Assembly (NCBI GenBank): GCA_024682255.1
Contig: GCA_024682255.1_4716.1
Direction: 5' to 3' (one strand)
Source: a phage
DNA length: 64,000 nt
The translations under genes and the position numbers were made by a program. The notes below the pieces were generated by a model, which searched no databases, was not told the DNA's origin, and was given only the letters and a program-made list of their open reading frames with translations. Position 1 is the first letter of the stretch. Each line of letters opens with the position of its first letter. Positions 43,094-57,723 of the stretch are shown here, in pieces.

Positions 43094-43993
43094 TTATACG
43101 GGAGCGTTAACGTTATAACCGAATACTGCTTTACCGTAGGTGTGAGTACCGTCAGCTAACGACAGCACCAGCACATTGCCGTACGTAGCGTTAACGCCCT
43201 TGTCGGTAGACTCGAGGGTATCACCGTTATAGACAAAGGTAGCTGTTTGCAGATTGGCTTTCAGTTCATTGATGATCTCATCACTTACACCGGTCTGCTC
43301 TTTGATCAGGGTGGTCAGGTTACCTGCCAGGCTTTCATCGATCTTGGTTTCGTTACTGGTAATCGCCTGTAAACCTACGCCGTAGATGCTGAAGTCTAAC
43401 GGATAGGTTAACAGACGCGCTGACGTTTTGGTACCATCGCCTTCATCAACGTAGGTTAAGTTACCCAGGTTGGTAACCTTGATGATGTTAGCCAGATCCA
43501 GCGTGGTGTTATAAACTTTAACTTGAACCGAGCCATACCACGCCAACGAATCTTCTTTGGCTTCCAGGGTGATCGTCTGGATACCATGCTGGTCGAAGGT
43601 AACCGGCGTAGCTAACGTTTCGGCTTTGATGTCTTTCGCTTTATCCAGGAACTTCTCACCGGAAGGCGTGATCATACCGTAGCGTTGAGCTACAAGGTCA
43701 ACCACGTCACCAATAGTGGTGTTCGCATTAACGTTAACACGTACAGCGATTTTCTGGAACCACTTAGCCAGATCCAGACGATGGTAGGTAACATCGCGTT
43801 CATTGAAGTAAGGGGTACCTTCACCTGGGCTAAGCGTTAAAGTTGCTTCTGGAGCAGAAGGATTCTTTTCTTTAAGAACGTATTTAAGGTCGGTGTATTT
43901 GAAGCTGGCACCAGTGTCGGCGTTGAGTTTGTTAATCTCATCAACGATAAGTTGCCAAGGTGTTTTTAAAGTAAGCGATACTTGAGCTGTCAT
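43094..43993 (-). CDS. paralog-family protein (YxRLDL ... LAWYGSV motif family), function unknown
   Basis: Track ORF, 299 aa; shares TYHRLDLAKWF and LAWYGSVQV motifs with 44135..44677, 55050..55955, 56872..57723 and 57734..58681. Confidence 0.6.
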   Translation of the reverse strand: MTAQVSLTLKTPWQLIVDEINKLNADTGASFKYTDLKYVLKEKNPSAPEATLTLSPGEGTPYFNERDVTYHRLDLAKWFQKIAVRVNVNANTTIGDVVDLVAQRYGMITPSGEKFLDKAKDIKAETLATPVTFDQHGIQTITLEAKEDSLAWYGSVQVKVYNTTLDLANIIKVTNLGNLTYVDEGDGTKTSARLLTYPLDFSIYGVGLQAITSNETKIDESLAGNLTTLIKEQTGVSDEIINELKANLQTATFVYNGDTLESTDKGVNATYGNVLVLSLADGTHTYGKAVFGYNVNAPV

Positions 43994-44971: not shown

Positions 44972-45607
44972 TTACTCAACACTGAACCCGTTCAAACGAA
45001 TAGCTTCATAACGCTTACGTTCACGACGTTTACGTGCCTGCCAACCGTAAATGAACTTCTCGTCTTTCTCACGACGTTCAGCTAATTCGATGTAGTAAGT
45101 GCTCTGCATATCCAGCATCGCGTCGATGAGATAATCTTTACCGGTTTCTCCGCGTTTAGCGATGTAAGCATCAATAGCTGCCAGTGATTTGGGACCCATT
45201 GCACCATCAGCGTCAATATCTTTCCAGTAAGTTTGACGGTTGTTCATGACGTTGAGATAACGCTGGAGGTTCTTAACCGCAACGGTTTTGCCTGCGTTGA
45301 TACCCAGGTCAAAGAGACGGTCAGCTAAAAACACAGAACGTTTCATGACTTCGTCAAGCTTCATCTTATCCCAGAAGTGGGTCTTGTAAATAAAGAACGC
45401 CATGTCGTAAGTAAGGTCACGCATGTTACCGTTCCAGCCGAATTTCGTTTTCAGCGTGGTTTTGTACTGATCGGCGAGTGCTTTCGTGATCCCCATCATG
45501 GTTTCATTTCCACTATCGTCAGGATCGTTAACATATCCTGCTTCGATACTGGTTTTGTCACGAATGATGAATTCGCAGGTAAAATCTTTTTCAGTAATCT
45601 TAGCCAT
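44972..45607 (-). CDS. GH108-family muramidase-like protein (candidate endolysin or virion-associated lysin)
   Basis: Track ORF, 211 aa; N-terminal EAGYVNDPDDSGNETMMGIT matches the GH108 signature EGGYxxDPxDxGGxTxxGIT; ATG with GAGGAG SD. Confidence 0.65.
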   Translation of the reverse strand: MAKITEKDFTCEFIIRDKTSIEAGYVNDPDDSGNETMMGITKALADQYKTTLKTKFGWNGNMRDLTYDMAFFIYKTHFWDKMKLDEVMKRSVFLADRLFDLGINAGKTVAVKNLQRYLNVMNNRQTYWKDIDADGAMGPKSLAAIDAYIAKRGETGKDYLIDAMLDMQSTYYIELAERREKDEKFIYGWQARKRRERKRYEAIRLNGFSVE

Positions 45608-45649
45608 TAGAACTCCTCGTTGGAATAACGATTTAGAGGAACAGGAAGG

Positions 45650-45727
45650 GTCTAGAACGCGATAAACGATTTAAACCAGGTAAACCCCAGGTTAAACTTT
45701 TCGAAGCGTTACAACGCGTTCTAGAAC
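45650..45727. promoter_or_regulatory. 11-bp inverted repeat TCTAGAACGCG ... CGCGTTCTAGA (54-nt spacer), 3' arm within 12-bp palindrome CGTTCTAGAACG
   Basis: Read directly; between the tail-fibre stop (45734) and the GH108 gene start (45607). Confidence 0.35.
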
Positions 45728-45733
45728 GTTGAA

Positions 45734-47782
45734 TTACATACCCTTGGTTCCTTTCACGTGATGTGCAATTTCTTCAACCATTGCACGCAGAGCACGAAGC
45801 TGTTGATCATGTTCGTACCAACCGCCTAACAGAACCCCACTATACACCATGGTGTCAAGACTTAACAGCCCTTTATCTGATACGTTGATCATTTCAGGGA
45901 ACTGTTCTTGAACACGCTGTGCAATAACACCGATCTTCTCGACATCAGGATCGTAGTTGTGACGGAAACGGGCAAGCCCGCTGCGCGCCATTTCACGTAA
46001 ACGTTCACTGAGAGATTCCGGATGGTCTTTCAGATAACGGATGTCGTGTTTACTACGCTCATCTGAACGGATGTATGCGTTAGGAACATCGATGTTGCTG
46101 TTGAAGTACAGCGCACTACCACCACCTGCAGAGTTCCCCCAATAGAAGCGTGTGATCTCACCGCCACCATTTTCCGTGATGATAACATGTTTACCTAAAC
46201 GTGTACCACCATTACCATCAACGAAGACCAGTTTGTTTCCGCTGTAAGAACCCCAGAACAAACGCGTATCGATGATGTGCGTTGCGGCGAGGCGGGCGTT
46301 ACGTGGTGTAGAATACACGGTGTTAACATCTTGCTGCGCATGCGCATCGGAAGCGATACCATAGTTCTGTACGTTACCCAACCCAACCTGCGCTTTCGTA
46401 ACAGCGTGAGGGTTGTCTCGACGGTTAGCGTGAGCGTTAACCAGATCACCCGCTAATTTCTGAATTGCCCAGTTGGTAGACTGTGGCGTCATGTAACGGT
46501 TAGTTGCAGAACCACCTTGCGCTTCAGCTTGGTTAGCGGTTGGGTAGTTCTCAACACTTCCTAACCCTACTTGTGCTTTAGACACTTGGTGCGGGTTATT
46601 CTTGTCGGCTTTATGCGCATTAAGCGGAACTAACGCAAAGGTCTCAATGGACGCTTTGGTTGTGTTCGGTGCCATTAATCGGTTAGCTGCAACACCGGCA
46701 CGCGCTTCTTCTTCAGAAGCCATCGGATAGTCTTGCACATTACCTAATCCCACCTGCGCCTTGGTCACTCTGTGTGGGTTGTTATAATCGGCTTTGTGCG
46801 CATTAAGTGGAATCAATGCGAATTGTTCAATCGCGGCAACGGTACGTAGCGGTGTCATGAAACGGTTGTTCGCTGTTCCGGCTTTCGCCTCATCATCCGA
46901 AGCGGTCGGGAAGTTATCAACGTTCCCAAGGTTAACCTGTGCTTTGGTGACGCTGTGTGGGTTATCCCGGCGGTTAGCGTGAGCATCGACTAGATCGCCC
47001 GCCAGTTTAGCAATTGCCCATCCAACCGTTTGTGCGGTCATGTATCGGTCAGGTGCGGTACCGGCTTCTGCCTCCGCCTTGTTTGCAGTAGGATAGTTCT
47101 GTACGTTACCTAGTCCGACTTGGGCTTTTGTTACTTCGTGCGGGTTATCGGTACGGTTAGCGTGTGCGTAATGCAGATCGGTCAGATCTTTATCCGCTGC
47201 TTGCATGTCTTTGCGTAGCTGATCGATTGCCGCCCAGAGACGGTTATCGGATGCAGCATCACCGATAAGTATTGCGGCTTTCAGTGAATAGATCGCTAAG
47301 CAAAGATGTTCGGTACCGTAAATAGCACTAACGTGGTGGATGTGTGGTTCAGGCGGATAAAGTTCCGGTTTGTTCTTGATGTCGTCCCAGTTGATCGGAC
47401 GATCGTCAAGTTTGAGTTCTTCGATAGCCTGATACAACGCGTCAATAAGACTTACGTAAACACCACCGATGATACGATAGTCGTTAACTAATGTCCCCTC
47501 GATATCATCGTTGATGATGGCGATGGCTGCACAGATTTCTTTACCTGCGTAAAGCGTCGCATCCTGATACAAGAAAATGGGTTTATAATCCACGCCTCGT
47601 ACCAGTGTCTTACCGGTAAGCTTTTCAGTGATGACCAGACTTTCGGTGAAGAACGGTCCGCCATCAAGGGCGTAACATTTATTCTCGGTTCGTGGAACGG
47701 TATGCTCTTCACCAACGATGTGGTTGCTGGCGAGTGTACCGGTCCAGTCCTCGGGGTACTTCAGGGTAATTGGTGTCGACAT
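45734..47782 (-). CDS. tail fibre protein with five NPHxVTKAQVGLGNV repeats and a C-terminal S74-type intramolecular chaperone domain
   Basis: Track ORF, 682 aa; five ~45-aa repeats of the Phage_fiber_2 type; C-terminus RSDERSKHDIRYL ... IGVIAQRVQEQFPEMI matches the endosialidase-chaperone autocleavage region (SDxRLK ... GFIAQEVEEVLPE). Confidence 0.8.
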   Translation of the reverse strand: MSTPITLKYPEDWTGTLASNHIVGEEHTVPRTENKCYALDGGPFFTESLVITEKLTGKTLVRGVDYKPIFLYQDATLYAGKEICAAIAIINDDIEGTLVNDYRIIGGVYVSLIDALYQAIEELKLDDRPINWDDIKNKPELYPPEPHIHHVSAIYGTEHLCLAIYSLKAAILIGDAASDNRLWAAIDQLRKDMQAADKDLTDLHYAHANRTDNPHEVTKAQVGLGNVQNYPTANKAEAEAGTAPDRYMTAQTVGWAIAKLAGDLVDAHANRRDNPHSVTKAQVNLGNVDNFPTASDDEAKAGTANNRFMTPLRTVAAIEQFALIPLNAHKADYNNPHRVTKAQVGLGNVQDYPMASEEEARAGVAANRLMAPNTTKASIETFALVPLNAHKADKNNPHQVSKAQVGLGSVENYPTANQAEAQGGSATNRYMTPQSTNWAIQKLAGDLVNAHANRRDNPHAVTKAQVGLGNVQNYGIASDAHAQQDVNTVYSTPRNARLAATHIIDTRLFWGSYSGNKLVFVDGNGGTRLGKHVIITENGGGEITRFYWGNSAGGGSALYFNSNIDVPNAYIRSDERSKHDIRYLKDHPESLSERLREMARSGLARFRHNYDPDVEKIGVIAQRVQEQFPEMINVSDKGLLSLDTMVYSGVLLGGWYEHDQQLRALRAMVEEIAHHVKGTKGM
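45737..46115 (-). other. S74-like intramolecular chaperone (autoproteolytic) domain of tail fibre
   Basis: C-terminal ~125 aa beginning at the SDERSK motif. Confidence 0.6.
46330..47200 (-). repeat. in-frame tandem coding repeats (~135 nt unit) encoding NPHxVTKAQVGLGNV modules
   Basis: Recurring DNA segments (e.g. ..gttacccaacccaacctgcgcttt.. on the plus strand) and five protein repeats. Confidence 0.7.
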
Positions 47783-47795
47783 AACCTGGAGGTCC

Positions 47796-50390
47796 TTATA
47801 ACGTGACTGTACCTAATTTGGTTGTCTTATTGAGATTAATGACAGAGATCTGGGTATCGCTGGTCGTAATCGTTCCGATATTAACGCGCTGTCCTTTATC
47901 ATCTTCTTGCTTGTAGATGGTTAACTCCAGTTCTAACTGGTCGCCATTAGGAACAACGGAAACGTACCATGTTTTATTACCTGGTGAGCTATTATAGTCT
48001 TTTAGGTTATAATGGCCTTTAGGTAAGGTCATGACCTTACCGGCAAACAAGCAAGTGATGTCTTCGTTGATGTAGATATCGTAACCGGAAGCAGCAACGA
48101 CCGTAGAAACCATGTAGACATGTTTGACGGTACCTGCGAGGTATTCGGCTACGCTTGGCCCATATGCTCTGAATACCTGTCCGCCATTGGATAAACGGTA
48201 CGCTTCCCCAAGGTCAACGTACCCCAGACCCCATACCGGATGGACGTTGTAACGACGTCCGCTGCTGGCCAAATACTCATAAAGCTCATCTACCGATAAC
48301 CCAACCCACGCACCACTGGCGTTCTTAGCACCACGGAATTGAAAATCGTTTGCGTTTCCTGGAGTAGCAACGCGCACGGACATCGCCCCGGCGATTAACC
48401 AGCCATCAGCGCATTTACGATACCCTAATGGTCCCCACGCCCCCAGAGTGTTATCAATGTTATTGATTTGGTCCCGAGGCGTGTAAGTTACCGTTGTGAC
48501 GACCCCCGTTACGGTAATGTTCCCTTCCCGAGCGCTAGTCGTTACTTCAGACGTCATGATAGCCGCCTTCCTGGAGACAGGATCGTACACCGATATGAAC
48601 ATCAAGCAGGGGGCCCCTGTGGACGCTGGAGGAACCACGATAGAGCCGCGTATAACGGAGTATCTCTCAAGCTTCGGCGACGTGTAGGTATCCCAACAAA
48701 GTTTGGCCGCTCTGTCGAGTTCTGCCTGCGTGATGCTTATCGATGCCCCCTTTAAGGCTAACGTATCAGGGTCGACCTCAACCCTGCTGCTTAATCTCCC
48801 TTCCTGTAACCAGCTACCAGTCACTATCGTCTGGTCGTCGCTCATGTGAATTGTCGCGAAACGTTCGCTCACTGAACCGCCTACGTGGACGCGACTGGTT
48901 GGCGGGAATCCCGTCACATCGACCACGCTGTTCTTATAGCGATAACTCAAATCCCAATCAGTGGTTATTAACCGCTTTTCGAAATTGCTCTGACCCCCTG
49001 GGATGCGGGATAAGACATAGACCTTGTTCTTCGCCGTGAAGCCAACGAAGCCGTGTGGACCACAGGACCCAACAACGCGGTCCATGATGTTAATCCAGTT
49101 CCCCACCTCGTACGCGGATATTGGGGTGAGTTTCGCAAGTTCGTCGAAGACATTACCAGCGTAGTCACCAATGCGATACGATCGAACCATCGGCGAGGCC
49201 AGGTTATCATTCACACAGCTGGTAACCAGACCGTCCTCGCGAATGACCATGTTCCCGGTAAGGTTGCCCCCACCCCATGCCCAGAATCCGTCTTTATAAT
49301 CACGGTCACGAGTTGACATCGTACAAGGGCCACGAAAGGACACCGAACCATCGGAGTTCACTTGTAATGACGGCGTTCCAGCATTGGGACTTAATGTCCA
49401 TTGCTTCGTATCCAGGTTCAAATCGACGTACCAGATCGTTGTCCCCTGGTCGGCGATATTCACGGTACTGTTAGTGTACCATGCCGTCGTGCAGTAGATT
49501 CGCGCAATGTTACCTCTTACAACAGCGTAATTTCGAACACCCGCACGAATAGGGATAAACGTCGTTAATTGACTAGGGTACGCTGTATGGTTTAACACTT
49601 CCCAGAAAAGAATGTGGTCGAGGTTGGTTTTCGTCGTTCCCTCAAAAATCTTTCCACTAAACCCGGTTTCTTTGGTGAACTGTACAGCCGCACCATTTTT
49701 AATGTCCGATAACATACAGGTATGTACATCGAGCCCGTGTTTCCCTTCATATTCCCACCAGACTAACAGGTACACTTTGTTTTTGTAGACGAACGTACTA
49801 CAGCGCGCCATGCTGTTGGTAATACCCTCTACCGACCCGGTACACATAGCGGCGACATGCATCTCTACGTTGAATGTGCCGTTAGTCAGAACGATGTAGG
49901 GCTGTGTGTTCTCGTCGTTTGCGTCCATCGCGATACCCATCATCACGCCGTGGTTATGACACCAGACCGATTGTGGGATTTTAGGTAGTGCTGTAGGGTT
50001 GTACTGGCGACTGGTACCTATGGCGGTATCGAGCAACCCTTCACCATTGTTTTTACAGATAGCGTAATACACCCCGTTTTTCATGCTGTTGGATGCAGAG
50101 CGAAGGATGGAAACACTCCCGTCTGCTTCCTGACAGATTCCGTAGGTACGACGTTCGGTCATGGCTATCGCGCCATCAGCTGACCCTTCGATGGCGAGAG
50201 GGAAGTAACTTTGATCGCCAATTTGTTCGATATCGGTTACGTCAATATCAATGTACTTTTCCATCTCGGTGTTGAACTCTGCAGTGCTGTACGCGCCGAG
50301 ATCGCCAGCCTTTAACCCTGTTGGATTGCTTCTGCTAGCGATGCGCTCGGTAACACTGGTCACCAGTTCGCTAAATTTTTTCATTGCCAT
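47796..50390 (-). CDS. large tail-associated protein (putative tail fibre/tailspike), function unknown
   Basis: Track ORF, 864 aa, ATG start; embedded in fibre operon; no catalytic motif recognised. Confidence 0.45.
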   Translation of the reverse strand: MAMKKFSELVTSVTERIASRSNPTGLKAGDLGAYSTAEFNTEMEKYIDIDVTDIEQIGDQSYFPLAIEGSADGAIAMTERRTYGICQEADGSVSILRSASNSMKNGVYYAICKNNGEGLLDTAIGTSRQYNPTALPKIPQSVWCHNHGVMMGIAMDANDENTQPYIVLTNGTFNVEMHVAAMCTGSVEGITNSMARCSTFVYKNKVYLLVWWEYEGKHGLDVHTCMLSDIKNGAAVQFTKETGFSGKIFEGTTKTNLDHILFWEVLNHTAYPSQLTTFIPIRAGVRNYAVVRGNIARIYCTTAWYTNSTVNIADQGTTIWYVDLNLDTKQWTLSPNAGTPSLQVNSDGSVSFRGPCTMSTRDRDYKDGFWAWGGGNLTGNMVIREDGLVTSCVNDNLASPMVRSYRIGDYAGNVFDELAKLTPISAYEVGNWINIMDRVVGSCGPHGFVGFTAKNKVYVLSRIPGGQSNFEKRLITTDWDLSYRYKNSVVDVTGFPPTSRVHVGGSVSERFATIHMSDDQTIVTGSWLQEGRLSSRVEVDPDTLALKGASISITQAELDRAAKLCWDTYTSPKLERYSVIRGSIVVPPASTGAPCLMFISVYDPVSRKAAIMTSEVTTSAREGNITVTGVVTTVTYTPRDQINNIDNTLGAWGPLGYRKCADGWLIAGAMSVRVATPGNANDFQFRGAKNASGAWVGLSVDELYEYLASSGRRYNVHPVWGLGYVDLGEAYRLSNGGQVFRAYGPSVAEYLAGTVKHVYMVSTVVAASGYDIYINEDITCLFAGKVMTLPKGHYNLKDYNSSPGNKTWYVSVVPNGDQLELELTIYKQEDDKGQRVNIGTITTSDTQISVINLNKTTKLGTVTL

Positions 50391-50402
50391 TATTCACCTC
50401 AG

Positions 50403-50888
50403 TTAAATCGGCGAATCAGGTAATTGACCATCGACAATCTCGATAGTGGCCACTTTACGTGTCGCAGCAAGATGTGCTGTGCCCTGAACTTTGTTCCAGG
50501 TACCGATACGCATCACGTTTTTATAGCTGCTGTTACTGTCGCTCAATGTGTAAACAAAACCGTTATCCGTGACAGCAAGATAGATCCAACCGGTTGATGC
50601 GCTAACACCAGAAACATCCAACGTGGTCGCGGGAACCGTTCCTGTTATCGTGTTGTATTCCGCTTCACCTTGGCCGATGCTGATCCTCCCGTTGTTGTAG
50701 CTGGCTGCTGGAATTATTTTATTTCGGCTGAAGAAAAGGAACGGAAGATAACGTTGTGTAACAAGAGGCGTAAGTTTAGGAGCCACTTCTGTCTTAGCGT
50801 ACACGTTTGTCTGTGTCGTTGTTACTGAATGAGGATTCTTCTTGGCCAGGTAGGCTCCCCATTCAGAAAGCAATGTCGATAACTTCAT
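50403..50888 (-). CDS. short fibre-associated protein with single NPxxVT motif
   Basis: Track ORF, 161 aa; N-terminus LSEWGAYLAKKNPHSVTTTQT resembles one fibre repeat. Confidence 0.5.
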   Translation of the reverse strand: MKLSTLLSEWGAYLAKKNPHSVTTTQTNVYAKTEVAPKLTPLVTQRYLPFLFFSRNKIIPAASYNNGRISIGQGEAEYNTITGTVPATTLDVSGVSASTGWIYLAVTDNGFVYTLSDSNSSYKNVMRIGTWNKVQGTAHLAATRKVATIEIVDGQLPDSPI

Positions 50889-50892
50889 ACGG

Positions 50893-51408
50893 CTACCCCA
50901 TGTAACGTTTTTGGCCGAGGATGAAGACCTTGTTAAGGACCACCGAGGTAATGCCTGACGCGTTGCAACTCACCTGCCCAACACGAATCGCTGTTGATGA
51001 ATCAGCCCCAGCACTACTGTTCCAACTCCAGCCGACCGACCCACCTTTCTGATGAATGAAAAGATAACCGGTTCTGTTCGCCCAGTCGGAAGTAAGATTT
51101 TTGATGTCTAGCGTTCCTTTCGCCAGAATATAGTCGGTACCGGAGATCATGACGGGGATTTCAGGATACGAGATTACCGTACCGCTAGCGGTAACGTTGC
51201 TGATGCGATCACTACGGATATCAGTGCAATCACCGAAATACGCTACAGGGAGTATCCCCTTAGGTAGCTTTTTGTCGATTTTTGTATCGACCGTGCTTTT
51301 ATCGGGTGCGTCGATTTGCGCTGCAGTGACTTGGTTAGGGTTATCCTTCCTTGTGTACCATGTCGTCATGCGAGCACCCAATTCACTCATTTTTGTGCCC
51401 ATTTTCAC
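50893..51408 (-). CDS. short fibre-associated protein with single NPxxVT motif
   Basis: Track ORF, 171 aa; N-terminus WYTRKDNPNQVTAAQI. Confidence 0.5.
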   Translation of the reverse strand: MKMGTKMSELGARMTTWYTRKDNPNQVTAAQIDAPDKSTVDTKIDKKLPKGILPVAYFGDCTDIRSDRISNVTASGTVISYPEIPVMISGTDYILAKGTLDIKNLTSDWANRTGYLFIHQKGGSVGWSWNSSAGADSSTAIRVGQVSCNASGITSVVLNKVFILGQKRYMG

Positions 51409-51417
51409 ATCCTATCG

Positions 51418-51453
51418 AAAAATAAAAAGAAGGAAAGGTGGGTAGAACCCACC
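51418..51453 (-). terminator. rho-independent-type terminator (GGTGGGT-aga-ACCCACC + U-rich tract on minus strand)
   Basis: 7-bp stem; followed on the minus strand by TTTCCTTCTTTTTATTTTT; directly after stop of 51460..53613. Confidence 0.65.
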
Positions 51454-51459
51454 CATCCG

Positions 51460-53613
51460 TTATAACGTTTCGAAGTCGGTTGCTTTGATAACCGCGTTGA
51501 AGTTAGCAAGGAATTCCTTAAGCAGTGCTTGGAAGACATCACGAAACGCTGTGTTCGTCTGCAAGCTGGTTAAATAATCGTTCTTAAGGTAATCGCTCAG
51601 CTTACCGATCTTCTGCATCTTCTCGCCGTCTTGGTTCTCTCCAGGTTCTTGGCTGTTGATGTTAACCCATTTGATCCCTTCGAGATCGCCATCGGCAAGG
51701 AAGTTAGCAGGTGTCTCATCGTCGTTCAGGATTTTAATTGTGTCGCTGGATTCAATGCCACCGTAAGCTTCCAGAAGCTGGTTGATGGTCAACTTATTGA
51801 CGTTGATTGAACCATTGACACCATCAATACCGATGCCTGCACCTGTGATGGATGTCGCCGAAAGATCGATCGGTCCGGTTAACTTACCACCGTTGATCGG
51901 TAACGCACCAACTTGCTCAGCGGTGTGTGTATGGTCGGCTAACGCCGCAAACGCCACGATAGACTTATACGTCGAATACGGCGTCATATACGCTGAATGG
52001 TTGGTGTTGTCAACCGCTTCGGTATCGGTAGCGACATTAAAGTTCTGCACGTTGCTGAGACCGACCTGCACCTTCGTTACTTCATGCGGGTTGCTCTTAT
52101 TGACAACGTGTGCTGCAAAACCGTCACCAGCTAAAGCAGTGATTGCCGCTTTTGTCGCAGCCGGTGTCATATAGCGGTTGGTTGCTTCACCCGTTTGCGC
52201 CTCTTCGTCGGAAGCAACAGGATAGTTCTCAACGCTCCCCAAACCGACCTGAGATTTTGTTACTTGGTGTGGGTTTTCGGTATTCGCGATGTGACTACTG
52301 AACCCTTGACCAGCCAGTTGCTCGATTGCGTAACGAACAAGTATTGGTGTCATGTACTTGTTGTTAACTTGACCATCGATAGCTTCTTGGGTGGTAGCAA
52401 CCCCGAAGTTTTGCACGCTCCCCAACCCAACCTGCGCTTTCGTAACGGCGTGAGGGTTATTGGTGTTACCGATGTGATCGGTAACCGTTGGCGTGATTAA
52501 TGCTGCGATAGCGGCTGCCGTGGTCGCAGGGGTCATGTATTTATCGTTAGCAACACCCGCACCAGCTTCTACGTTAGATGCTACACTGTAGTTCGATACA
52601 TTTCCCAACCCAACTTGAGCTTTGGTTACCCCATGAGGGTTATTGGTGTTACCGGTATGGGTTGTCAACGTAGCGTCGACATGATCGATACGCGTGCTTA
52701 AGCCATCGGTGATCGCTCTGATTGCGGCTCGTACACCCGCTGGAGTCGTGTACAGATTTGTGGCCGTACCGGTAATGGTTGCATTACTATCGGCTGTACC
52801 GTAGTTCTCAACGTTTCCGAGTCCCACCTGGGCTTTAGTTACCTTGTGTGGGTTGTTGCGGTTACTGATGTGTGCAGCGGCACTATCACCACTAAGGTTA
52901 GCGATCATCTTACGTGTCATCGCCAACGTCATGTACAGATTTTCACCGACAGTTTCCAGATCGCTCTCGGTCGCTGTTGTGAAGTTCTGCACATTCCCCA
53001 ACCCAACCTGCGCTTTCGTAACGCCATGGGGATTATCGCGACGATTCTCGTGCTGCAGCAATGCGGTCATTGCTTTATTGAACCCTTCTTCAAGCGGTTC
53101 TTTCAATGATTCGATTGCCGCCACCACATCGTCCCACGTCATTGTGTCGGTTTCGACATTATGTTGGTGGTTGATTGGCGGGAATACGGAAGGAACGTCG
53201 GCAACCTTTTCCCAGAACGTAACGCGAGGATCGTAAAGGTTGTTGGCTAAAACGTTAAGAATTTGTTGTTGATCAAGTGTAAACTCACCCCCCAGTGAAT
53301 AGTAGTTCAGTTGCAACTGTCCACTGAATGCGGTGTCCAACAGCATGATGGAACCGTATAATTCCAGGCCGGTCAGCGCAGCCATGGCACGGAAGGGGTG
53401 AGTGCATAAAAAGTCAACGCCTTCTTCCAGATACGCGTTTGTTTCAGGGTTGTAGATCTTTAACCCATTACGAAAATATGGCGCGTATTTAGGAACGAGA
53501 AAGTTAAATCCGGTCCCCGTGGAAGGACGGACAGTGACGAGTTCTTCTGGAACCCATGCGCCATCCAAATTCCCCTGCGGGTTATACGGAAGGCGTTTAA
53601 TTTCATCTGTCAT
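51460..53613 (-). CDS. tail fibre protein with six NPHxVTKAQVGLGNV repeats
   Basis: Track ORF, 717 aa; six ~46-aa repeats; N-terminal domain related to that of 45734..47782. Confidence 0.8.
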   Translation of the reverse strand: MTDEIKRLPYNPQGNLDGAWVPEELVTVRPSTGTGFNFLVPKYAPYFRNGLKIYNPETNAYLEEGVDFLCTHPFRAMAALTGLELYGSIMLLDTAFSGQLQLNYYSLGGEFTLDQQQILNVLANNLYDPRVTFWEKVADVPSVFPPINHQHNVETDTMTWDDVVAAIESLKEPLEEGFNKAMTALLQHENRRDNPHGVTKAQVGLGNVQNFTTATESDLETVGENLYMTLAMTRKMIANLSGDSAAAHISNRNNPHKVTKAQVGLGNVENYGTADSNATITGTATNLYTTPAGVRAAIRAITDGLSTRIDHVDATLTTHTGNTNNPHGVTKAQVGLGNVSNYSVASNVEAGAGVANDKYMTPATTAAAIAALITPTVTDHIGNTNNPHAVTKAQVGLGSVQNFGVATTQEAIDGQVNNKYMTPILVRYAIEQLAGQGFSSHIANTENPHQVTKSQVGLGSVENYPVASDEEAQTGEATNRYMTPAATKAAITALAGDGFAAHVVNKSNPHEVTKVQVGLSNVQNFNVATDTEAVDNTNHSAYMTPYSTYKSIVAFAALADHTHTAEQVGALPINGGKLTGPIDLSATSITGAGIGIDGVNGSINVNKLTINQLLEAYGGIESSDTIKILNDDETPANFLADGDLEGIKWVNINSQEPGENQDGEKMQKIGKLSDYLKNDYLTSLQTNTAFRDVFQALLKEFLANFNAVIKATDFETL
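52050..53040 (-). repeat. in-frame tandem coding repeats encoding NPHxVTKAQVGLGNV modules
   Basis: Six protein repeats; recurring DNA segments. Confidence 0.7.
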
Positions 53614-53645
53614 GATGCGCCCTTTACAAGTTGTTAGTAAGTATG

Positions 53646-53663
53646 GGATACCCTGGGGTATCC
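53646..53663. promoter_or_regulatory. 18-bp palindrome GGATACCC-TG-GGGTATCC in divergent promoter region
   Basis: Perfect 8-bp inverted arms with 2-nt spacer, between 51460..53613 (-) start and 53718 (+) start; followed by AAATATTACTG resembling the TATATTAC core. Confidence 0.4.
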
Positions 53664-53717
53664 TGTGTTAACAGCGGTAAAATATTACTGTAACTATAAA
53701 ATAAGGGGGCCTCTCCC

Positions 53718-54998
53718 ATGTATACATTGGTAAAAACTTACGGGTTACCCGTAGGTTCTGGCACGGCCTGGACAGCGCTTGAGGCGGGTGAAAGTGTCCT
53801 GAGTACGTTGTTCTCAACGTATCAAAAACTCAAGATCCAGGTCCATGAAAGCTACGCTGACCAGCAACAAGTTATTGATCTGTACACATTTCAATCCGAG
53901 CTTCAAAACAGCAGTGATACGCTCAATGCGTGGTTGAAAGCGAAATCGGATGCACATACCAACCTTCGAGGACAGCCTGGTGAGCTGTCGATTAAAACCC
54001 ACAAGCTTTATTGTCATGACGCTATTACGGTAGGCTTTCTCCCTAAAGTCGGTAATAGCGGTTATCATCCGAGCAATGCGATCCCTGAGTCGGAACGCAC
54101 TGATATCCTGTTGACGAAAGCGAATACGAATTACGAAAATATCGGCAAACACTGCTTGTTCACCGTAGGCGGTTATGTTCATCCTCACGTCTACGGTAAA
54201 GACGTTGGTGTCTATATCCTGGGTGGGTTCGAGACAGCACAGCGTAGCCAAGAAAACGATATCGGCATGATTGATTTTAGCCGTATCGGGAGTTTGGAAA
54301 TTCATGCTATCACAGAAGAGATGATTGCTGATTCCACGAAGCTCTTGCCGTATAAGGACGAGATGTACTTGCGGTTACCGCGCAAGGTCGCCGAAGATGA
54401 AACCGTTGCGCTGGTGTTCGGGGGATATTTACATCTTCTTGACGATTGTTACACGATCGTTAGCGACACGACAGCAAAAATAAACTGCATTAACATGTTT
54501 CTCTATGAAAGATACTTCCGTTCCCGCAAATACCTTGATCTAACATCTCTTGGTATTCTGTTGAACGAAGAAGACCCACAGTCCGACATTGTTGCCAATC
54601 GTTTATTGTCGGATAAAGCATTAAAAGCGTGGGTGACGCATCCTTGCAGTTTCTGGGTGTATATCAAAGCAACATCGATTCGGGTTACGCAAGAACCTTT
54701 ACCACGAAGTGGTGTACCAGGACAGTATTTCTTAGGTAAGAAACCGGAAGGATTGATTCGGGCCGATCTTGGTGAGTTACCGGCTTACGTGCAGACCTAT
54801 GAAAAACCGTTATGGGTACTTCACTCGCGCTGGGGACTTCGTAAGAACATGTTGTTTGAAAATACGTTGTACAAACATACCCGCGTTAAGCGGCTTAACG
54901 ATACGCCTTATCTTCACCAGGTCTGGTTGGAAACGCATGCGACGTTGCAGACAGTACACAAGCTCGAATTGATCGATTCCAGTCAGAAAAACAAATAA
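53718..54998 (+). CDS. hypothetical protein
   Basis: Track ORF, 426 aa, ATG start. Confidence 0.6.
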   Translation: MYTLVKTYGLPVGSGTAWTALEAGESVLSTLFSTYQKLKIQVHESYADQQQVIDLYTFQSELQNSSDTLNAWLKAKSDAHTNLRGQPGELSIKTHKLYCHDAITVGFLPKVGNSGYHPSNAIPESERTDILLTKANTNYENIGKHCLFTVGGYVHPHVYGKDVGVYILGGFETAQRSQENDIGMIDFSRIGSLEIHAITEEMIADSTKLLPYKDEMYLRLPRKVAEDETVALVFGGYLHLLDDCYTIVSDTTAKINCINMFLYERYFRSRKYLDLTSLGILLNEEDPQSDIVANRLLSDKALKAWVTHPCSFWVYIKATSIRVTQEPLPRSGVPGQYFLGKKPEGLIRADLGELPAYVQTYEKPLWVLHSRWGLRKNMLFENTLYKHTRVKRLNDTPYLHQVWLETHATLQTVHKLELIDSSQKNK

Positions 54999-55049: not shown

Positions 55050-55955
55050 TTATGCTACATATAGCGTTAGATAACCATCGATGAGCGTATTCATCACACT
55101 GAGTTGGAGTACGACAGCTTTACTAACATCTGTGCGTACACCGAACGGTAGTGTTTTGAATTGCTCTGGATCGGCTATTACTCTCGCATTCTGCAAGTTG
55201 AGTGGTCCAGGCATTGCTGACAGTACCCAGCGATCGTTGACCGTAAGACCGTCGATCTCTTCAGAGAGACCCAATTGCAGCATGTTCATTTCTGCAATTA
55301 GTGCCTCCGATTGCGTATCACCTGAGGTTAACGTATACCCATCGGTAAGTGATGCCAGAACACCAGCAGATACGAACCAGTTGTACGAAACAATAGCGCC
55401 AGGGAGTTTATCACTATCTCGATCGATGAGATAATTCAACCCAGCCAACATATTGTTGCGAATGAGGTTGTTGAGGTCATTATGTCCTGAGGTTAACTCA
55501 ATGAGTAATTGACCAACCCATACTTGGTTACCGGGTTTAGGTGTTATCACAACCTGTATCGGTGACTTGGACTTATCCAGATCCGCGTCGACAATCTCGG
55601 TTTTGTTGAGAAGGATACCGTACGTCGATGCTAAGACAGGTAGGATCTCAGAGACCTTGGTTAGCGCATCTAAGGTTTCGATCTCGATGGGCCAGTGGTG
55701 CTGTCCGCCAGACCAAGTACCTAGTTTACCAAGATCGATACGGTTATAATAGATGTCGACAGAGTTCACCAGCCCTGAACCCGGTTGGGGATGCACGGTT
55801 AACTTGCTGTTACGCTTGTACCCGGTGCTTTCAGAAGCCTCACCGATAACCAGTTTATCCAGCGTTACGCCTCGAGCATCGAAATCGCTATGCTTTCGAA
55901 TCAGCCGAAAGAGGATTTCTTTCGATTCTAACCCCAGGATTTCACTGTACTCCAT
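55050..55955 (-). CDS. paralog-family protein, function unknown
   Basis: Track ORF, 301 aa; motifs YKRNSK, IYYNRIDLGKL, STYGIL. Confidence 0.6.
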   Translation of the reverse strand: MEYSEILGLESKEILFRLIRKHSDFDARGVTLDKLVIGEASESTGYKRNSKLTVHPQPGSGLVNSVDIYYNRIDLGKLGTWSGGQHHWPIEIETLDALTKVSEILPVLASTYGILLNKTEIVDADLDKSKSPIQVVITPKPGNQVWVGQLLIELTSGHNDLNNLIRNNMLAGLNYLIDRDSDKLPGAIVSYNWFVSAGVLASLTDGYTLTSGDTQSEALIAEMNMLQLGLSEEIDGLTVNDRWVLSAMPGPLNLQNARVIADPEQFKTLPFGVRTDVSKAVVLQLSVMNTLIDGYLTLYVA

Positions 55956-56871: not shown

Positions 56872-57723
56872 TCAGTTATATTGCATCAACAGGATACCGC
56901 CGTAGTTCGTGCAGTAATCTTGGCTAAGCGTAACGATAACAGCGTTAGCGAACGCTGGGTTAACAGGATAACCCTGTGCGATAAGTTCTGTTGTTTTACC
57001 GGTCGCGAGCACGGTGGCTCCGTAAAGGTTGTTTTCATCTTCACGGCCGTTATACACCCACGGGGTTGGCGCAACGTTGTTGAATAAGCTAACCAATGCG
57101 CTTAAGTTACCACCAACTTTTAACCCAGCAAGATCGGAACGGATCGCTGTACAGTCTATAGCGTAACTGTAGACCAGTGCTTGGATACGATTTGCGGTGT
57201 AGTACGGGAAATTGAGACCGGTCATCACCGTGGTCTTCATCATCCCCGCAATATCGTGGGCGCTATCGAGGAGATAGAACGTAACACTTCCTGTCCAAGC
57301 CAATCCGGTTGTTTTCAATTCTACGGTGTGAGGGAACGGATATTCATCACCTCGTACAATCGGAGAATCGACGCAGCTATCCTGATCGATAACGATACCG
57401 TACGTTGATTGGATCAGAGGGATAAGATCGTGCGTCGTTTTAACCCCGGCATCGATAGCAAGCTTCGGTTCCATTCCCAAGAAGAAGTCTTGAATAGGGA
57501 TACGATCGTACCACACGTAGCTGCTTTCACGGTATTGTGCTGGTGTTACTGTTGCCGAAGGCGATACTTTCGCGCGCGTGTTCCGTTTATACGCGTGGTT
57601 TCCGTTTTCAGCAACATCCGTGATATCAATTGCATCGAAGTTAAAGTCGAAGTCAGGATTGGCTGCCTGAATAAGTTCAGCGACCAGTACTTTAGGACTT
57701 TTGTTTAACAATTTCTGACTCAT
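56872..57723 (-). CDS. paralog-family protein, function unknown
   Basis: Track ORF, 283 aa; motifs YKRNTR, VWYDRIPI, STYGIV, LAWTGSV, DYCTNYGG. Confidence 0.6.
   Translation of the reverse strand: MSQKLLNKSPKVLVAELIQAANPDFDFNFDAIDITDVAENGNHAYKRNTRAKVSPSATVTPAQYRESSYVWYDRIPIQDFFLGMEPKLAIDAGVKTTHDLIPLIQSTYGIVIDQDSCVDSPIVRGDEYPFPHTVELKTTGLAWTGSVTFYLLDSAHDIAGMMKTTVMTGLNFPYYTANRIQALVYSYAIDCTAIRSDLAGLKVGGNLSALVSLFNNVAPTPWVYNGREDENNLYGATVLATGKTTELIAQGYPVNPAFANAVIVTLSQDYCTNYGGILLMQYN

Follow-up and report, generated by a model that had tools for sequence, protein, structure and literature searches.

The closest described counterparts of the fibre genes treated here belong to phage phiKZ, whose products gp131 to gp135 form, together with gp130, a 'hetero-hexameric fiber complex' (Xiao et al. 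2026, Nat Commun, PMC13250141). Cryo-electron microscopy (cryo-EM) showed twelve peripheral fibres, each held under gp130 via six gp131-like N-domains and a six-helix bundle, and the fibre base was read as three gp131 and one each of gp133, gp134 and gp135 (PMC13250141). The N-domains were located at the sites where the fibres attach, with an extended region running downward, gp130 is a peripheral-baseplate protein lying directly above these sites, and the authors liken the fibres functionally to the short tail fibres of T4 (PMC13250141). The second point of comparison is Escherichia phage vB_EcoM_Goslar, a 237-kb nucleus-forming jumbo phage of Escherichia coli, for which gp25 and gp29 were placed among the likely peripheral-baseplate or tail-fibre proteins (10.64898/2026.04.21.720040). 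In these 2026 studies the fibres were left unassigned in the Goslar maps (10.64898/2026.04.21.720040) and only the fibre base was modelled for phiKZ (PMC13250141). Here we describe a 64,000-nucleotide (nt) stretch of phage DNA (GenBank assembly GCA_024682255.1, contig GCA_024682255.1_4716.1; hereafter the window), which is 93.6-95.1% identical to Goslar by megablast. Its region 45734-54998 encodes two repeat-built fibre proteins, three proteins lacking their N-terminal domain and a gp130 homologue, and we consider it quite probable that this region as a whole represents, in a Goslar-type form, the baseplate fibre module gp130-gp135 of phiKZ.

Gene order and homology to phiKZ

The locus consists of a tight series of five open reading frames (ORFs) on the minus strand, in the order fibB, s2, s1, 'big' and fibA, which pair one-to-one with Goslar gp029 to gp025, and of an upstream ORF which is the counterpart of gp030; the order is the same in both phages. 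In the following list, as elsewhere, the anchor is the gp131-like N-terminal domain, a half unit is the first part of the repeat described below, and lengths are in amino acids (aa).

45734-47782, minus strand: fibA, fibre protein of 682 aa, orthologue of Goslar gp025 (99.3% identical), phrog_2163/13857
47796-50390, minus strand: 'big', anchor-less protein of 864 aa, counterpart of Goslar gp026, which opens with a half unit and continues as an all-beta body that includes a beta-propeller
50403-50888, minus strand: s1, anchor-less protein of 161 aa, counterpart of Goslar gp027, with the N-terminal half unit KKNPHSVTTTQTNVYAKTEV
50893-51408, minus strand: s2, ORF of 171 aa, counterpart of Goslar gp028, with the N-terminal half unit KDNPNQVTAAQIDA
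51460-53613, minus strand: fibB, fibre protein of 717 aa, orthologue of Goslar gp029 (97.1% identical)
53718-54998, plus strand: gp130 homologue of 426 aa, counterpart of Goslar gp030, phrog_3337, divergent from the fibre genes

BLASTP comparisons with phiKZ matched fibA to gp135 (expect value, E, of 2e-31), gp131 (7e-30), gp134 (5e-23) and gp133 (2e-21), and fibB to gp131 (3e-44). Over these four phiKZ proteins the E values of the two fibres lie between 4e-15 and 3e-44, with alignments starting in the N-domain, the fibB-gp134 pair being weaker at 5e-9. The ORF at 53718-54998 matches phiKZ gp130 at 4e-27 and has the same divergent layout beside the fibre genes. The first 194 residues of fibA were found by tblastn in 267 phage records, phiKZ included, the listed records being almost all of 200-320 kb, and a word-indexed search gave at least 2,894 relatives of fibA, many of them on contigs of 200-300 kb. 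The anchors of fibA and fibB are also related to each other, as a first-pass annotation of this DNA had proposed, at the distance of 24% identity over 131 aa (E 6e-11).

The phiKZ and window modules differ in how the same parts are distributed. The repeat, which we call the NPH unit, occurs throughout phiKZ gp131-gp135 (e.g., HIHDYNNPHRVTKAQVGLSLVPNY in gp131), and the homologous anchor in four phiKZ paralogues of 1-3 units each, whereas the window phage has two anchor-bearing proteins, of 5 and 6 units. In phiKZ gp131 a propeller is carried in the same chain, whereas the window phage encodes a separate anchor-less propeller protein; a gp131-type C-terminal seven-bladed propeller was looked for in the two fibres and found in neither. 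The phiKZ gp132, with 110 aa and a single NPH unit, resembles the small window proteins. Finally, the S74 domain found at the end of fibA is not noted in phiKZ, whose proteins were not scanned against Pfam.

Architecture and fold of the two fibres

Both proteins can be divided into an anchor, a helical neck or its equivalent, a shaft of NPH units and a distal part of their own, all on the minus strand.

47333-47782: fibA anchor, residues 1-150, gp131-like N-terminal domain ending in the motif WDDIKNKPELYPPEPHIHH
47174-47332: fibA neck, residues 151-203, a long alpha-helix (predicted helix 152-208, AlphaFold2)
46259-47173: fibA shaft, residues 204-508, five 61-aa units A1-A5 (E 7e-27 to 2e-32 with the unit model)
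46067-46258: fibA tip, residues 509-572, glycine-rich (GNGG, GGG, GGG)
45734-46066: fibA S74 domain, residues 573-682 and stop codon, with a C-terminal helix at 649-681
53164-53613: fibB anchor, residues 1-150
53062-53163: fibB neck, residues 151-184
51937-53061: fibB shaft, residues 185-559, six NPH units
51463-51936: fibB distal domain, residues 560-717, beginning HTHTAEQVGALP

The earlier view of two fibres that have the anchor in common, a shaft made of repeats and distal ends of different kinds is supported, fibA closing with its glycine-rich tip and S74 domain and fibB with a distinct domain at 560-717. The predicted count of five and six repeats was also exact. A regular expression for NPxxV[ST] finds the motif in fibA at residues 213, 274, 335, 396 and 457, with a period of exactly 61, and in fibB at residues 194, 254, 325, 386, 447 and 508, with spacings of 60, 71, 61, 61 and 61. 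A hidden Markov model (HMM) built from the 11 units gives exactly five full-length matches in fibA and six in fibB, each with E between 1e-27 and 1e-32, and no further full unit in any frame of the window. The units are 36-63% identical to each other in protein sequence and their consensus reads xxAHxxxxxNPHxVTKAQVGLGNVQNYxxAxxxEAxxGxAxNxYMTPxxTxxAIxxLAxxx, with H4, N10, P11, H12, V14, K16, Q18, V19, L21, V24 and A30 invariant. Each unit is laid out as an H-x5-NPH-x-VTKAQVGLGNV loop, an element 'A(S/T)xxEAxxG...YMTP' like those of T4 gp12 and gp34, and a helix of about 20 residues bridging to the next unit. The two histidines H4 and H12 are invariant in 11 of the 11 window units (fibA 204-508, fibB 185-559) and invariant or nearly so in a 62-sequence family alignment; by analogy with other phage fibres, they might possibly form metal sites along the shaft.

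This unit is widespread: a profile search of 1.84 billion representative proteins found it in 16,141 protein clusters at E <=1e-3 and in 797 at E <=1e-30. The Pfam family that the first-pass annotation had in mind, Phage_fiber_2, does not match the fibre repeat, and no family of Pfam or NCBIfam covers the unit, even at E 10. Beyond S74, Pfam gave no match to the whole proteins at E <=0.1 or to the repeat region taken by itself at E <=10. No paper was retrieved from the literature with the motif strings. When fibA, fibB and 'big' were compared by sequence with the PDB entries, neither the repeat nor 'big' had a solved relative; the match of fibB to ribosomal protein L18e (E 0.004) is a chance fit to an NPH-like string. 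We thus face a 61-aa repeat common to about 16,000 protein clusters yet without a curated family.

In the AlphaFold2 model of the fibA monomer, the beta N-domain is confident, 10-residue blocks over residues 11-110 averaging 82-97 in predicted local distance difference test score (pLDDT), and is followed by a 57-residue helix at 152-208. The units have a pLDDT of 80-87 and show an extended NPH...GLGNV segment, a short helix and the bridging helix of about 20 residues. The tip (508-568) has a pLDDT of about 30 in the monomer, as expected of a part that folds only in the oligomer. TM-scores (template-modelling scores) and root-mean-square deviations carry no meaning for a monomer model of a fibre. 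With Foldseek, the PDB gave significant matches only to gp12, the short tail fibre protein, from T4 and from a T4-like Klebsiella phage (5iv5 gp12, E 7e-6; 9f4b gp12, 8e-6 and 1e-5), the next being 5nxh gp34 (0.016) and 5lye gp12 (0.04). The T4 gp34 repeats 'IATQxExxAGT...TPK' resemble the second half of the unit, not significantly (unit profile against T4 gp34 in the PDB, E 0.69), and in the matches T4 gp12 and gp34 have no counterpart to the invariant H-x5-NPH-x-VTKAQVGLGNV half or to the bridging helix.

The first-pass annotation had called these proteins long tail fibres. Homology and synteny instead make them fibres of the phiKZ gp131-135 type and the significant fold matches are with gp12 short fibres only; fibA and fibB would accordingly be baseplate fibres of the phiKZ type, their shaft probably similar to that of gp12, and not long fibres like those of T4. 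By analogy with phiKZ, the gp131-like beta domain and the long helix would attach the two proteins to the outer baseplate, beneath the gp130 homologue, the fibA helix 152-208 corresponding, by inference, to the phiKZ six-helix bundle. The anchors end in a motif W-x-x-I/V-x-x-x-P-x-x-F/Y-P-P-x-x-H-x-H (fibA residues 129-150, about 47333-47398; fibB 132-152), which weakly matches 'tail collar fibers gp4' of PDB entry 9d93 (E 0.03); this W...PP..H.H motif may be one widely shared among fibres.

Virion content and probable composition of the fibre base

In purified virions of Goslar, mass spectrometry detected all five proteins of the fibre module, gp025-gp029. These data concern the Goslar proteins and not the window phage itself, the fibre orthologues being 97-99% identical, and the published copy estimates are good to about +/-50%.

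gp025 (orthologue of fibA): about 87 copies per virion, range 58-136, 44 peptides
gp029 (orthologue of fibB): about 75 copies per virion, range 50-118, 34 peptides
gp028 (counterpart of s2): about 14 copies per virion, range 9.5-22.4
gp027 (counterpart of s1): about 14 copies per virion, range 9.2-21.6
gp026 (counterpart of 'big'): about 13 copies per virion, range 8.5-20.1

Because the module has only two anchor-bearing paralogues and these are about equimolar in Goslar virions, the six-chain base known from phiKZ would most likely be made here of three fibA and three fibB. The shafts would be trimeric. The same numbers have also to be considered from another side, since about 87 and 75 copies exceed a simple trimer set of six or twelve fibres. 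It could be imagined that fibA and fibB mainly build the peripheral baseplate ring and do not project as fibres, the NPH units acting as spacer or lattice modules. Also in its favour, the ring and the fibres are both unassigned in the Goslar cryo-EM map, and the prediction of the units reaches fair confidence although the model is monomeric. We regard this arrangement as very unlikely: in phiKZ the homologous N-domains sit at the fibre attachment sites with their extended region leading downward, an S74 chaperone is typical of the distal ends of fibres or spikes, the best fold matches are gp12 fibres, and the excess has to be read against the error of the copy estimates.

The S74 domain of fibA

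Fibres built of repeats and ending in an S74 chaperone are routine phage biology, and this one is already annotated in the reference genome, the RefSeq note on Goslar gp025 citing 'conserved domain Peptidase_S74 pfam13884'. The first-pass annotation had recognized the domain too, and the Pfam score bears it out: Peptidase_S74 (PF13884) matches fibA 573-631, scoring 26.0 bits with the whole protein and 28.7 bits with residues 500-682 alone, for a curated gathering cut-off of 22 bits, and spans positions 1-56 of the 58 of the profile. SDERSK lies at 573-578, where Ser573 and Lys578 belong to the invariant SDxRxK motif of the family, and IGVIAQRVQEQFPE starts at residue 617. Among fibA and 14 homologous C-terminal domains, the S, D, R and K of SDxRxK do not vary, nor do the G..A....P residues of the 'GVIAQ...P' motif. 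A profile of these 15 domains matches the S16 gp37 (6f45_A, 1.9e-19), the autoprocessing domain of MYRF (7dc3, 4.6e-12), the GA-1 neck appendage (3gud, 1.9e-6) and the L-shaped fibre of DT57C (8hqz_d, 2e-4). The fold search with the whole-chain fibA model reached an S74 structure, 3gw6, at E 2.5 only; the S74 part of the model consists of beta strands followed by the long terminal helix at 649-681.

Compared with the known S74 proteins (K1F endosialidase, GA-1, the T5/DT57C L-shaped fibre, S16 gp37 and MYRF), fibA has the domain at the same C-terminal position and shares with them the SDxRxK motif, its Lys five positions after its Ser, as well as the G-x-x-A-Q...P-E motif and the long terminal helix. 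It differs by its low identity to them (14-30%) and by a serine after the arginine (SDERSK), a position that in most members is occupied by Leu, Val or Ile. Membership of fibA in the S74 family is, on these sequence comparisons, well supported. We take Ser573 and Lys578 to be the catalytic dyad, from established knowledge of the family. By analogy with its other members, the C-terminal chaperone would fold the small glycine-rich tip and then self-cleave at Ser573 using Lys578, so that residues 509-572 would be the mature C-terminus. The Goslar virion peptides that bear on this cover the alphabetical range from A to about DM: five A- or D-initial peptides of the mature region of gp025 are present and both S74-domain peptides, AMVEEIAHHVK and DHPESLSER, are absent, only two of the six expected S74-domain peptides falling in this range. 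This pattern is weakly consistent with release of the domain.

The three anchor-less partner proteins

The first-pass annotation had given each of the two short proteins a single NPxxVT unit. The motif is indeed there, not the full unit: only about the first 14 of the 61 positions are represented, the unit HMM aligning positions 6-19 with s2 (E 0.02) and 8-19 with s1 (E 0.1), both marginal. The annotation had missed that 'big' also opens with a degenerate half unit, RSNPTGLKAGDLGAY, whose residues N22, P23, G25, L26, A28, D30 and Y34 are invariant across alleles, even those that are 33% identical. All three proteins thus have no anchor and no full unit, and each starts with a short helix and a half unit of the NPxxVT type. 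Their N-termini resemble one another (s1 against s2, 1e-4; 'big' against s2, 4e-3) as well as the 'junction' variant NPHxVTADQVxxYTKxxVD of phiKZ gp131, gp134 and gp135, which closes the arrays just before the C-terminal domains of these proteins. With hhalign, residues 5-40 of 'big' align with residues 304-339 of gp131 only, at a probability of 2.5%, and no propeller homology between the two was found. For s2, the start is likely the ATG at 51402, judged from the start context, which would give a protein of 169 aa.

Other relations link the partners with each other and with the fibres. The C-terminal domain of s2 is related to the C-terminus of 'big' (BLASTP 6e-4; common matches to phrog_3573 and phrog_26864), and phrog_3573 combines, as a fusion, a segment that matches fibA residues 101-259 with a gp026-like body behind it. 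The Foldseek matches of 'big' have low TM-scores and indicate just 'beta-propeller plus beta-sandwich'. We also observed, in a more distant relative (contig L007, 7808-15582), the order fibB-like, fibA-like (lacking S74), s2-like, s1-like and 'big'-like; there, the trio s2/s1/'big' stays contiguous while fibA has moved.

The N-terminal half units, this contiguity and the 13-14 copies or so of each protein suggest that these three proteins are fibre heads that have become detached, each present roughly once per fibre if the fibres number twelve. They would ride on the fibres as exchangeable heads. A more specific form of this idea, which we put forward as speculative and rather doubtful, is that the NPH unit is a universal plug: s2, s1 and 'big' would join 1:1:1 via their half units, of the kind that normally links shaft and head, into a heterotrimeric head docking on homotrimeric NPH shafts, one per fibre, and host range would be changed by swapping the head cassette with anchor and shaft untouched. 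The docking site could possibly be the fibA tip bared by loss of the S74 domain, as for gp38 on gp37 of S16 and T2.

Several observations weigh against a phiKZ-like module built in this way. The 75-87 copies of the fibre proteins are about twice the 36 of each expected for twelve fibres of three fibA and three fibB. The half-unit matches are marginal in s1, s2 and 'big' (E 0.02-0.1 with the HMM, and the hhalign probability given above), and the propeller similarity of 'big' is generic, with 4-10% identity and no sequence link to the gp131 propeller. The absence of S74 peptides concerns two peptides, in the alphabetical range from A to about DM. With these points taken into account, the phiKZ-type module keeps the good probability given at the outset, and it provides a parts list for a Goslar-type fibre: two anchor-and-shaft proteins, three anchor-less candidate heads and a gp130-like protein for their docking.

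The variable block and its possible link to host specificity

Sliding 200-nt identity over a MAFFT alignment of the window with Goslar maps a mosaic block of about 2.9 kb at 48128-50990, which covers 'big', s1 and part of s2. It has a sharp edge near 48128, a core (48128-50191) of 30-60% nucleotide identity and a shoulder (50192-50991) of 79-83%, between flanks of 92-100%. At the protein level, 'big' is 52% identical to Goslar gp026 and to its counterparts in three other contigs, themselves 93-97% mutually identical, with the first 80 or so and last 120 or so residues conserved. Goslar gp026 belongs to a different allele group from 'big', whose nearest cluster is one of 98% identity (P0121), and the public sequences of the 864-aa protein fall into at least four allele groups. 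The small proteins diverge less, s1 being 84.5% identical to gp027 (83-85% to relatives) and s2 87.7% to gp028, and both repeat fibres are 97-99% identical to Goslar despite the block.

The reported receptor of Goslar is lipopolysaccharide (LPS), the screen genes being galU, hldE and waaF. Because the propeller protein sits in the only block that is strongly diverged from Goslar, it would be the best candidate for the element setting specificity for the host, here presumably for LPS. The 2.9-kb cassette is the place to look for host-range determinants, and with the parts list it could be useful for engineering jumbo phages, whose nucleus shields them from many bacterial defences.

Repeat number and recombination

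The first-pass annotation had viewed the in-frame DNA repeats as substrates for recombination changing fibre length and host range. The comparison of repeat number among isolates that it proposed shows constant lengths in all Goslar-like sequences compared: fibA has 682 aa in five loci (window, Goslar and three further contigs, 99.3-100% identical) and fibB 717 aa in the four that hold it (95.7-97.4% identical). Both full-length representatives of the fibB clusters have 717 aa, as has an 87%-identical fibB allele. The DNA units show a diverged 183-nt periodicity with an in-register identity of 37-66%, and Tandem Repeats Finder reports nothing in the fibre genes. The longest exact shared runs are of 29 nt (B1/B4) and 26 nt (A5/B1 and A5/B4), with at most 18 nt within fibA; the units are poor substrates for recombination. 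What holds of the idea concerns long evolutionary scales, since distant members of the family, among the 120 best homologues, carry 2-12 units.

These data bear on the alternative of two independent long tail fibres, fibA and fibB, with repeats that recombine to change length and host range. The spread of unit number just mentioned, with up to 29 matched unit stretches in one protein in the profile search, would agree with it, as would the shuffling of distal ends across the family (some S74, one Gp38-adhesin domain, many lacking a Pfam match) and the exact 26-29 nt runs among A5, B1 and B4. The constant lengths of close relatives, the low identity of the DNA units and the empty tandem-repeat search argue the other way; besides, the strongly diverged block lies outside the repeats, and both fold and homology indicate short baseplate fibres. 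A last argument for it would be a hybrid gene in a 1,437-nt contig (JAODFR010000112.1, E. coli draft GCA_025336745.1; locus L002, cluster P0035), which has the fibA anchor up to unit 3 (95.8% nucleotide identity) and a fibB-type distal end (84.5%), joined in the VTKAQVGLGNV core. A second or longer copy of this hybrid was searched for and none was found. Either recombination in nature or a mis-join of short reads produced it, and a mis-join is plausible because GLGNVQD is common to A3 and to the B6 core of fibB variants. Overall, we judge the long-fibre alternative unlikely and retain baseplate fibres of the phiKZ type.

Neighbouring features

Two further features lie within or beside the fibre series.

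51436-51454, minus strand: hairpin resembling a terminator, GGGTGGGTTCTACCCACC with a T-rich run behind it, located between the stop codon of fibB and the start of s2
44972-45607, following fibA: endolysin gene (Pfam Glyco_hydro_108 and PG_binding_3)

The hairpin is a consensus match alone, the count of such sites in the region being no higher than in shuffled sequences. It might add to the roughly five-fold lower abundance that the products of the three following genes show in Goslar virions. Goslar-like phages transcribe with their own RNA polymerases, and a sigma-70 promoter scan of the region was uninformative, with fewer sites than in shuffles.

In two Goslar-like contigs (L003, 12208-13317; L005, 6527-7636), a 369-aa ORF lies on the opposite strand between the fibA and endolysin genes. 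It has a faint Pfam match to Stc1 and is absent from the window (equivalent intergenic region 45608-45733), from Goslar and from a third contig, L004; it has the look of a mobile insertion and may be a homing endonuclease. The fibre module is also flanked by DUF7941 proteins, at 43094-43993 and 55050-55955, and a further one at 56872-57723 was recognized via L003 and L004, all on the minus strand; this chimallivirus-specific family was proposed to form a long 'fibre cloud' at the baseplate (10.64898/2026.04.21.720040). Finally, clusters P0001, P0121, P0127 and P0266 (405, 56, 326 and 426 members) contain proteins nearly identical to those of the window phage, and their members, where a source is named, come from assemblies of E. 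coli or Salmonella Enteritidis. Sequencing of enterobacterial isolates may often include Goslar-like phages, present in a carrier state or as contaminants.

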